Source: Escherichia coli
GTDB taxonomy: Bacteria > Pseudomonadota > Gammaproteobacteria > Enterobacterales > Enterobacteriaceae
Length of the DNA: 64,000 nucleotides
NCBI RefSeq assembly: GCF_003019035.1
Contig: NZ_CP027447.1
Direction: 5' to 3' (one strand)
Shown one piece after another: positions 27,001 to 30,000 of this stretch. Position 1 is the stretch's first letter; each line of letters begins with the position of its first letter. The position numbers were made by a program.

Positions 27001-30000
27001 AACACTCGCCGCGACGGGTTGAACAAAGCCACCACCGGGCTGACGCAGGGGATTAGCCTGGTCAACCGTGAACTGGCGATGACCCAGCCACTGGTGAAAC
27101 AGGGGGCGGCGAGCAGCGTCGAAGTGCTGCGCCTGCAACGTCAGGCCAATGAACTGGAAAACAAACTCAGCGACGTGCGCACGCAATATTACGTTCAGGC
27201 GCGCGAAGAGTTAGCGAAAGCCAATGCGGAAGTAGAAACCCAGCGTTCGGTGATCCGCGGGCGGGAAGATTCTCTCACCCGGCTCAACTTTACCGCGCCG
27301 GTACGTGGCATTGTTCAGGACATTGACGTCACCACGGTTGGCGGCGTTATTGCCCCCGGTGGTAAACTGATGACCATCGTGCCGCTGGATGAGCAACTGC
27401 TGATCGAGGCAAAAATCTCCCCGCGCGATGTGGCGTTTATCCATCCGGGGCAAAAATCGCTGGTGAAAATAACCGCTTACGACTACTCCATCTACGGCGG
27501 CCTGCCGGGGGAAGTGGCGGTGATATCACCAGACACCGTGCAGGATGAAGTGCGACGCGATGTTTATTACTATCGGGTGTACATTCGCACTTTCAGCAAC
27601 CATCTGGAAAACAAAAGTAAACAGCAGTTTCCGATATTTCCCGGCATGGTGGCGACGGTCGATATCCGCACCGGCAAAAAAAGCGTGCTGGATTATCTGT
27701 TGAAACCCTTTAACAAAGCACAGGAGGCGTTGCGCGAACGATGAACATTAGCGATGTAGCAAAAATTACCGGCCTGACCAGCAAAGCAATCCGCTTCTAT
27801 GAAGAGAAGGGGCTGGTGACGCCGCCGATGCGCAGCGAAAATGGTTATCGAACCTACACGCAGCAGCATCTCAACGAACTGACCTTACTGCGGCAGGCAC
27901 GCCAGGTGGGCTTTAACCTGGAAGAGAGCGGCGAGCTGGTGAATCTGTTTAACGATCCGCAGCGTCACAGTGCCGACGTCAAACGTCGTACGTTGGAGAA
28001 GGTAGCGGAGATCGAACGGCATATCGAAGAACTGCAATCCATGCGCAACCAGCTACTGGCGCTGGCGAATGCCTGCCCCGGTGATGACAGCGCCGACTGC
28101 CCGATTATCGAAAATCTCTCCGGCTGCTGTCATCATCGGGCGGGGTGAAAATCAGTTAATCCCCGTTTGCACCGAAAGAATATGCTGCAAACTTTCTACC
28201 ATAATGCGCCCCGACTGAAATAAGCCTTCCTGGATTTCGTTGTTAACATTCACAGCGTGAACCAGGGAGGCTAATAACACCACTTGCAAGAAGGCAAAAA
28301 TAAACGCACCGATAATCATAATATGCGTCAGGGGGATTTTCCTTTGCTCCTTCATTTTAAATAACCCACAAACTGACCTTCCTTCATTAAGGCGACTTTT
28401 CCCGTGTGGTGATAAACAATGACGTTATAAAGACCTGACTGATAAACAGTGGCATCTTTATTGTCTTCATCAATTGCACATAATGAATCATTGAGATAAG
28501 CAAAGTTCTTACTGCTCATTCTAAAGGTCATGCCAAATCCTTTATAAATGGCTTTCTTTGCCGCCTGGGCATGTTGTGCGGCTTCTGCATTTTTAAATGC
28601 CTGCGCCTCGGATGCACTTAAAATAGCCGTCTGACGCTGCTGTTCTGCGAGATAACAGGTGTCATGGCTGACGCCCTGCGCCTGGCAATCTGCGATGCGG
28701 GAAGTGGGTGAACTACAGCCAGCCAGTAATATAACCGCCAGCAGGGAAAACGATTTAATGGAGCTATTCATCATTGTTAACCTTAAATAATGTGCGGAAA
28801 ATTGCGAATAAGAAATTGCTGTTAAAATTAGAACGAATATCCCACGCCGACACCCGCACCGAAATCAGATTGTGTATCCGCAGAAATACCTGCTTTAAGT
28901 ACCGTATGCGTTCCGGCATTAAAAGATGTTCCTACAGACACCGCAGATTCACCGTTGAACGTTCCCGCTCCCGCTGACACCATCATCACGTCACCGGTTT
29001 TCACCTGTGGTTGTGAGGCGATAGCAATGGCAGATGCAGTTCCCGCATTGGCTTCTTTACGATTGTCCTCAACTTCGTTTTTCAGAGAATCGAAATGGTT
29101 ATTGAGCGTGTTAATTTGTTGGCTGTTATCTGCGACCCGTTTTTGCGTGTTGGTTAACTGTTGCTGCGTTTGTGCGGAATCTTGTCTCAGACTTTCAATT
29201 TGCTCATGTGCCTGGACAGACTTCTGCGCCAGACTTTGCATTTGTTTATCGTATTGAGCCCTTTCTTTTTGCTGTTGTGCTGCCACATCGGTTGTCAGTG
29301 CATTCATTTTCTGCCCTTGTTCCGTGGTAGTGCGCTGATTAGCCTCATTTTGAGCCGCCAGCCTGGCATTAATCATCTCCTGATAATGCGCGGTATTTTG
29401 CGTATCTCCAGTCGCGGCGAGCGTTTTTTGTGTGGCTACGATCTGCGCCTGTTGCTCTGTAATTTGCGTTTGCTGGGCGTCAGTTACCGCAGACTGTCGG
29501 GCGTTGATCATGCTCTGATAACGGGCGGTTGTCTGTACATCACCTGTAGCGGCAACGGTTTTTTGTCCTGCGTCAGGATCTGTCTGGACAGGGGGAGTCT
29601 GAGTGGTATCAGGTGTTTCAGAAGGGATGTAGTGATGTTCAGTCAAATAGGTATACGCAGCGGGGCTGTTGTCTGTGCGTTCTAAAAAGCGGGTAATCTT
29701 CTGCTCAATCTCCGATTGCGACATGCCGGAGTTAATGGCTGAAAGCTCTGTTGCCGCCGCTTCAATGGTATCACCAGCTAAAACAACAGGGCTGGATGTT
29801 GCTGAAATTATGAGTGCCAGTAAAGCTACGTTTACAGTTTTCATTCATTTTCTCTTGTTCAAAATAAGTCGCATTGATGTTTCTATAAGAAACAAATAAT
29901 ATTGCTTTAAGAAATAAACTGCGTTGCAATTTGATCGAAATCTACGCCGCCATTTGTGTGATGTAAAGCGCATTTTTGTCTTGTGTAAGCGTAAACACCA

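Follow-up and report, generated by a model that had tools for sequence, protein, structure and literature searches.

How does a core metal regulator come to start on the stop codon of an accessory secretion gene, and does it depend on that gene for its expression? The question is raised by a 64,000-nucleotide stretch of Escherichia coli DNA (RefSeq assembly GCF_003019035.1, contig NZ_CP027447.1; 'the window' below means this whole stretch, numbered from its first letter), where cueR, encoding the Cu(I)-responsive MerR-family regulator CueR (27741..28148, + strand, 135 aa), begins within the end of a gene for a HlyD-family periplasmic adaptor of a type I secretion system (T1SS; 26569..27744, + strand, 391 aa). 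The adaptor gene is the last gene of a cluster that is O-island 28 (OI-28) of enterohaemorrhagic E. coli (EHEC) O157:H7. We consider it likely that the overlap is a fossil junction which gives no sign that cueR depends on the secretion operon, and that cueR has signals of its own in the adaptor tail; probably, it needs neither operon read-through nor translational coupling.

The overlap between the adaptor gene and cueR

The shared letters ATGA (27741..27744, + strand) place the cueR start codon on the adaptor stop codon, as the open reading frame (ORF) list, the sequence and the annotation all have it: the stop codon TGA is bases 2–4 of the four, because cueR codons 1–2 (ATG AAC) provide it, and the adaptor translation ends ...QEALRER* where that of CueR starts MNISDVAK. 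The Shine–Dalgarno (SD) sequence for cueR, read in the sequence as AGGAGG (27722..27727, + strand; 13 nt to the ATG), lies within the adaptor codons CAG GAG GCG, and no other SD-like run was seen between it and the cueR ATG. An earlier note on this DNA had described both the overlap and the SD within adaptor codons, and the ORF list and sequence agree with it. RefSeq annotates the same 4-nt overlap in strain SCU-301, which is 100% identical to the window over 27000–28500, and in EDL933.

Both gene assignments are backed by profile matches. CueR, listed as an ORF, scores 308 bits against the NF007590 cut-off of 244 over residues 1–135 (equivalog NF007590 / TIGR02044), with the metal-binding residues Cys112 and Cys120 both present. 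The adaptor, likewise from the ORF list, scores 327.7 bits against a TIGR01843 cut-off of 208.65, its residues 185–391 falling on positions 217–422 of the 422-position profile, and its C-terminus aligns end-to-end with HlyD (PDB 8dck, chain C), through ...ER*. The overlap itself is statistically unremarkable, since in the 41 kb around it six of 21 adjacent gene pairs on one strand share exactly 4 nt. Its kind is an ordinary one, in which the SD and promoter of a downstream gene lie inside the gene upstream.

The ybaT–cueR spacer of island-free genomes is an adaptor relic

Across 5426 complete E. coli genomes, the adaptor tail together with cueR was found in 5424, the body of the adaptor gene in 960 (~18%); in the other ~82% a frameshifted relic stands upstream of cueR, and the SD and ATGA overlap are present in nearly all. 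The match of island-free genomes to the window begins at 27646 or 27649, not at 27741. The earlier note had set the island junction right at the cueR start, a placement that does not survive alignment with K-12: the junction lies 95 bp upstream, the breakpoints being 1863/1864 on the left and 27645/27646 on the right. The segment absent from K-12-type genomes, as defined by these homology breakpoints, is therefore the island minus its last 95 bp (1864..27645; 25,782 bp). Those last 95 bp of the adaptor gene (27646..27740, + strand), which hold the cueR 5′ untranslated region (5′UTR) and SD, align to the 124-bp ybaT–cueR spacer of K-12 MG1655 and NCTC10973 and make up most of it, as a non-coding relic that in K-12 carries eight substitutions and a 1-bp deletion. 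The NCBI Prokaryotic Genome Annotation Pipeline (PGAP) annotates the relic as a frameshifted, N-terminally truncated pseudogene still reaching 4 nt over cueR. It is a genuine gene remnant, since it encodes the family-conserved HlyD C-terminus (GM..I.TG.RSV..YLL.P...L.ER*; counterpart in HlyD, ...GMAVTAEIKTGMRSVISYLLSPLEESVTESLHER*) and extends to the last position of TIGR01843. The K-12-type, island-free state is thus a deletion derivative: what fills most of the ybaT–cueR spacer is the defunct 3′ end of the gene that closes the island.

The reverse history, a recent insertion of the island into a K-12-like chromosome at the cueR start, would make the 95 bp of K-12 ordinary intergenic DNA that resembles the adaptor tail by chance. 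It would suit the published description of OI-28 as acquired and absent from K-12 (PMC12758282), and the presence of the island in only 18% of genomes. It is, however, already contradicted by the alignments: the K-12 spacer is 92.6% identical to the last 95 bp of the adaptor gene with a single 1-bp deletion and encodes the conserved HlyD C-terminus, E. albertii, E. whittamii and cryptic clades have either a relic or a full adaptor, and other genera carry copA promoter sequence at that place. We find a recent insertion very hard to credit, and the view of OI-28 as 'acquired' and simply absent from K-12 needs correcting, as the K-12 spacer keeps its end.

Translation of cueR and constraint on the adaptor tail

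The SD, the spacer and the ATGA are the same in island-bearing and island-free genomes, and in K-12-type genomes the upstream ORF is a frameshifted 94-nt relic that leaves no adaptor to translate. K-12 cueR is functional all the same, its deletion giving copper and acid phenotypes (PMC9628877). Coupling is not required, then, because K-12 cueR works behind a frameshifted relic with the same SD, spacer and ATGA. Of the two marks of a coupled gene pair, we find the stop/start overlap and, by this indirect test, no dependence on upstream translation.

The rival with which these observations have to be weighed is that cueR is simply the last gene of the secretion operon, carried on read-through mRNA from PtolC28 and translated by coupling through the AUGA. 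The 4-nt overlap and the lack of a terminator-like site between the two genes are what such an operon would show, the 13-nt SD spacing is suboptimal, and the OI-28 genes are reported to form one unit activated by RstA and Ca2+ (PMC12758282). This rival is hard to square with the identical SD, spacer and ATGA in the ~82% of genomes that have only the 94-nt relic, among them K-12 with its functional cueR, with a cueR start region that is unstructured, and with the primary transcript 5′ end that EDL933 shows at -160 under each of the eight conditions tried (below). We regard it as quite improbable. Termination–reinitiation at the AUGA may nevertheless occur on operon transcripts, although cueR does not need it.

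The portion of the tail nearest cueR shows a pattern of its own. Relic and window differ at nine positions in the distal 46 nt and at none in the proximal 49 nt (Fisher's exact test, p = 9e-4 against the distal part and p = 2e-5 against cueR synonymous sites). The latter are far from invariant: cueR in the window and in K-12 has 24 synonymous differences and one non-synonymous, giving a proportion of synonymous differences (pS) of 0.256 (24/94 synonymous sites), as compared with a pS of 0.062 for ybaT. Positions -24..-1 are invariant among 14 Escherichia sequences, E. albertii included, with one G>T excepted. Moreover, the proximal tail has been spared by three truncations that end at different points: the K-12 type stops at -95, an IS1 stands at -149 in IAI39, whose 153-bp 'hemolysin D' pseudogene still overlaps cueR, and E. 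albertii retains at least ~60 bp, with the ybaT terminator intact. The identity and retention of the proximal tail fit purifying selection on the cueR 5′UTR and ribosome-binding site.

Some individual loci deserve mention. The G>T occurs in O145 RM11626 at -18, turning AGGAGG into ATGAGG and an adaptor Gln into His. At the IAI39 locus (NC_011750.1 502473–507517) the IS1 joins the adaptor remnant to allB/ybbY, which indicates rearrangement, and an IS4 over the 3′ end of cueR has changed its C-terminus (414-bp ORF, WP_001026753.1). Between the window and K-12 (locus 5994..6401) cueR is 93.9% identical at the nucleotide level, with differences concentrated in codons 72–114. The window-type allele also occurs in N41, an island-free genome that carries the accessory segment found to the right of cueR in the window; as N41 has the allele and that segment without the island, cueR divergence may track the right-hand segment rather than OI-28.

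Transcription in island-bearing strains

Cappable-seq in EDL933 gives a single gene-associated start for cueR, 604687 on the + strand, classed as primary and called in 8/8 conditions (Zehentner et al., 2023; PMC10469882); this is nucleotide 1012 of the adaptor gene, with the cueR start codon 160 nt further downstream (supplementary files 6 and 8 of the same paper). A gap-free alignment of EDL933 with the window places the equivalent 5′ end at 27581 (an A, + strand). Upstream of it we note a putative -10 hexamer, TACTAT (27568..27573, + strand), discerned directly in the sequence at -13..-8 relative to the mapped transcription start site (TSS), and a weak putative -35, ATGAAG, 17 bp upstream of TACTAT. 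A consensus promoter scan of 27300–28300 returned nothing on the + strand, so the case for an embedded promoter rests on the published mapping and not on motif strength. From -186 to -130 no differences are seen among the nine island-bearing sequences compared, one of which, E. whittamii, carries some ten substitutions over the 70 bp just before; this invariance hints at promoter constraint, although constraint on the encoded protein could also account for it. The earlier note had left three options open for cueR expression, namely read-through, coupling or a promoter within the closing part of the adaptor gene: the EDL933 start supports the last, and dependence on the first two finds no support. 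It had also held that an independent promoter within about the last 150 bp of the adaptor gene would overturn such dependence, and the promoter proposed here falls just outside that distance, ~170–196 bp upstream. As regards operon membership, an independent transcription start is present (the -160 start, in 8/8 conditions), and no terminator separates the genes, which overlap.

No + strand terminator-like site was found in 27300–28300 and no significant RNA structure between the -160 start and cueR: folding of the -160 leader, the -19 leader (see below) and the start region gave z values of -0.4 to +1.9 against shuffled sequences, the cueR start region folding less stably than shuffles. A hairpin that shortens the SD–ATG spacing or sequesters the SD was considered and dropped, as folding was no better than in shuffles. 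An Rfam scan of 26000–31000 gave nothing at the adaptor–cueR junction.

The -160 end might instead belong to another RNA, such as a short ORF-internal transcript or a product of pervasive weak initiation, with cueR served by a different start or by read-through. Very many non-canonical internal starts were reported in the same EDL933 study (PMC10469882), further ones lie within the EDL933 adaptor gene itself (603894 and 604481/2), and the promoter hexamers are weak. Unlike these other internal starts, the -160 start was detected under all eight conditions, and no other start lies as close as 250 bp to cueR; in addition, neither a terminator, a stable structure nor a matching Rfam family intervenes before cueR. 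An origin of this kind therefore seems to us unlikely, and we retain the -160 end as the candidate start for cueR.

Transcription in K-12-type strains

K-12-type strains lack the -160 region, and their mapped starts lie elsewhere. A K-12 TSS for cueR was located inside ybaT, with a 5′UTR of 292 nt and 31 reads (Kim et al., 2012; PMC3415461 supplement). The ybaT-internal promoter region (1639..1666, + strand) is an exact match in the window and K-12, and window base 1666 is the equivalent both of the K-12 -292 TSS and of the EDL933 internal TSS 579390, which was called in one condition only (PMC10469882). RegulonDB, as tabulated in PMC10469882, gives a K-12 cueR start 19 nt upstream. That position is an A, the first base of AGGAGG, and its -35 site (-52..-47) reads TTGAAT in K-12 against TGGATT in island-bearing strains, where TGGATT is coding sequence for Leu-Asp-Tyr; no start near the -19 position was present in the supplementary EDL933 start lists searched. 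The supplements of Mendoza-Vargas 2009, Ettwiller 2016 and SMRT-Cappable-seq 2018 hold no cueR entry.

The deletion also bears on termination. In the window, ybaT is followed by a strong terminator-like hairpin (1845..1867, + strand), a 10-bp stem then CTTTGTCTTT, with dG -16.4 kcal/mol and z -4.2. The K-12-type deletion endpoint falls in the 3′ arm of this hairpin, and no + strand terminator-like site was found between ybaT and cueR in K-12. The promoter serving cueR thus differs by haplotype, in each case within the present or former coding sequence of a neighbour. A strong intragenic sigma-54 site has also been described inside K-12 ybaT (512,537, U00096.2), 679 bp upstream of cueR (PMC4591121); its exact 17-mer is absent from the window, in which 26 kb separate ybaT from cueR.

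A probable older insertion into a divergent copA–cueR pair

To place the arrangement in the wider family, one genome per species with CueR was scanned, giving 80 loci. At most non-Escherichia loci copA lies on the other strand, with its start ~96–110 bp upstream of cueR, in genera that include Salmonella, Citrobacter, Enterobacter, Klebsiella, Kluyvera and Kosakonia. The interval in these other genera consists of the copA promoter with its CueR box (...ACCTTCCAGCAAGGGGAAGGTCAAG), then GGGGGAAAT, then the cueR start, mostly GTG, and in Salmonella, Citrobacter, Enterobacter, Klebsiella, Kluyvera and others 9 nt separate the end of the CueR-binding copA promoter from the first base of cueR. When K-12 is set against these genera, similarity on the copA side ends just after GTCAAG and on the cueR side begins at the ATG. 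In Escherichia, then, the space from the copA -35 hexamer to the cueR ATG is occupied exactly by glsA–ybaT and the T1SS cluster. The Salmonella copA–cueR pair has been noted before, and a ybaS–ybaT–cueR operon was predicted in K-12 (Permina et al., 2006). With the boundary directly at the cueR ATG, the whole 5′ region of cueR is adaptor-derived, the ancestral SD having been replaced by adaptor codons. For this older event, the earlier claim of a junction against the cueR start does hold, relative to the copA–cueR pair of other genera if not relative to K-12.

The adaptor–cueR arrangement is old within Escherichia. A full adaptor with ATGA is found in E. whittamii and in one cryptic-clade Escherichia, a frameshifted adaptor in an Escherichia locus labelled E. 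coli SCPM-O-B-8794, and a K-12-type relic in Escherichia sp. MOD1-EC7003. E. albertii keeps a decayed relic that is intact over no more than about its final 25 nt (CAGGAGGCGTTGCGCGAACG before the ATG) and whose endpoint is not placeable beyond about -60, the divergence being too high. In the literature searched we did not find a description of this history, that is, the loss of the divergent promoter by cueR, its refit from the adaptor tail and a fossil of it in more than 80% of E. coli.

The other flank has also varied. Many Citrobacter and some Kosakonia have ybbJ ~3.3 kb after the cueR start instead of ~0.4 kb, and at several of those loci copA is not adjacent to cueR either; the shifted positions of both genes mark the two cueR flanks as insertion hot spots across the Enterobacteriaceae. 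The Citrobacter insert between cueR and ybbJ has no homology to the right-hand segment of the window.

A model for cueR expression

We propose that an ancestral divergent copA–cueR pair was split by glsA–ybaT and an OI-28-type cluster at the cueR ATG, and that cueR has since been translated from the AGGAGG at 27722–27727 inside adaptor codons. In island-bearing strains a weak constitutive promoter would supply a transcript from ~27581 (-160) that reaches cueR, and read-through of the T1SS operon could add cueR mRNA, because no terminator intervenes, without being required. On loss of the island the proximal adaptor tail would always be retained because it is the cueR 5′UTR and translation start region. 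The K-12-type deletion would also cut the ybaT terminator, so that cueR is reached from the ybaT-internal promoter (-292), in addition to the -19 start.

Several points weigh against this model. The TACTAT and ATGAAG hexamers are weak and were missed by the consensus scan, and the invariance of -186..-130 may stem from constraint on the adaptor protein instead of the promoter. The mapping of the -160 start comes from EDL933 and not from the window strain; 604687 is tied to cueR by proximity (≤250 bp), and we infer that its transcript reaches through the gene. The K-12 -19 start is second-hand, a RegulonDB value in another paper. Given the long 13-nt spacing, coupling could still contribute on operon transcripts, such a spacing suggesting modest translation efficiency. 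The identical 49 nt could in principle stem from a recombination tract, which we consider the weaker alternative to selection, and glsA–ybaT and the T1SS cluster may have arrived in one event or in two.

The secretion/adhesin island and its surroundings

On its left the island is bounded by the core gene ybaT (541..1833, + strand), an ORF with 98.3% nucleotide identity to K-12 ybaT. Its other genes, all on the + strand, are tolC28 for a TolC-family outer membrane component (2171..3526; TIGR01844, 412 bits against a cut-off of 225), a giant adhesin of 6925 aa related to SiiEA / BapA and intact as one ORF (3629..24406), and a T1SS ABC permease/ATPase (24410..26572; TIGR03375, 837 bits). The adaptor is thus clustered with an ABC permease/ATPase, a TolC-family channel and the 6925-aa adhesin ORF, as expected of a T1SS neighbourhood. 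OI-28 has been described as comprising tolC28, rtxA28/rtxB28 (= siiEA), hlyB28 and hlyD28 (Niu et al., 2025; PMC12758282), and as an adhesion system activated by RstA and Ca2+; that paper makes no mention of cueR, the overlap or the K-12 relic. EDL933 OI-28 is like the window in locus, gene order and ATGA overlap with cueR, and the adaptor (WP_001014327.1) and CueR (WP_001026752.1) proteins are identical in the two. They differ in the adhesin, which is one intact 6925-aa ORF in the window and an internal-stop pseudogene, siiEA, in EDL933 (581353..601512, RefSeq). Because of that internal stop, the 'two RTX proteins' rtxA28 and rtxB28 look like two fragments of one gene. PGAP splits the SCU-301 adhesin into five coding sequences.

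To the right of cueR, a second accessory segment of 2,526 bp (28149..30674) lies between the cueR and ybbJ stop codons, which abut in K-12, from which the segment is absent. It contains two small ORFs, a 338-aa YadA-family adhesin and a 120-aa ORF, so that cueR is a 408-bp core gene with variable DNA at both its start and its stop codon; O145 RM11626 and AZ 186 have other content at the spot between cueR and ybbJ. Sub-threshold Rfam matches to naRNA4, a repetitive extragenic palindromic (REP)-type repeat family, occur on both strands at 30558..30714, the boundary of the right-hand block and ybbJ.

Implications and comparison with known systems

Taken as a whole, the adaptor–cueR junction is a gene overlap of an ordinary sort, with a modestly interesting history. 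A stronger claim, which we advance tentatively and with rather more doubt than conviction, is that a core metal regulator has acquired its obligatory 5′ control region by takeover of an accessory secretion gene's tail, which would limit island loss and make the promoter haplotype-specific. If true, there would be a hard limit on loss of the island, with every natural truncation stopping at least ~50–60 bp before cueR. Island-bearing strains would then use a constitutive -160 start, possibly topped up by RstA/Ca2+-driven read-through, and island-free strains the -292 start, possibly with glsA–ybaT read-through, and the -19 start after loss of the ybaT terminator. CueR dosage and the copper-efflux set-point would be wired differently, to calcium and adhesion in EHEC-like strains and to acid resistance in K-12-like strains. 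That cueR lies downstream of glsA–ybaT, with nothing terminator-like to separate them, may account for the links reported in K-12-type strains between the responses to copper and to acid. There is also a practical side: the mapped cueR start is lost in any clean deletion of hlyD28 or of the island as a whole, and the ribosome-binding site of cueR could go with it. It is therefore advisable to leave at least the last ~200 bp in place in such mutants, or else to check their expression of CueR and copA. More generally, the locus would offer a worked case of regulatory takeover, in which a core regulator is refitted from the coding sequence of a neighbour and its promoters vary by strain.

Three known systems offer a comparison. 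The first is the MerR-type divergent pair, as in merR–merT and in the copA–cueR pairs of Salmonella, Citrobacter, Enterobacter and Klebsiella, the latter with the same CueR orthologue and the same ybbJ–qmcA synteny. On the copA side Escherichia resembles these genera, with the copA promoter and its CueR box conserved. The cueR side departs from them: the copA promoter is at least 2.6 kb away in K-12 and ~28 kb away in the window, and cueR has an ATG with an adaptor-derived SD where the divergent-pair genera mostly have GTG with a GGGGGA SD. A search of the window for CueR boxes found matches at chance level only, far from cueR, with no CueR box upstream of the gene, and autoregulation through a local CueR box was rejected on that ground.

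The second comparison is with coupled pairs such as trpB–trpA, joined by ATGA or TGATG as at many operon junctions. The adaptor gene and cueR share with these a same-strand 4-nt stop/start overlap and an SD inside the upstream ORF, but here the genes are functionally unrelated, and cueR works behind a dead relic, so that coupling is not required. The third comparison is with genes whose promoters lie within the gene upstream: the main rpoS promoter is inside nlpD, and ftsZ promoters are inside ddlB and ftsA. Like rpoS and ftsZ, cueR would have its transcription start inside the coding part of the gene upstream and would not rely on the promoter of that gene. Unlike theirs, its host gene is accessory and has been lost in most strains, and the cueR promoter therefore differs by haplotype, with the -160 start in the adaptor gene on the one hand and the -292 start in ybaT and -19 start in the relic on the other.

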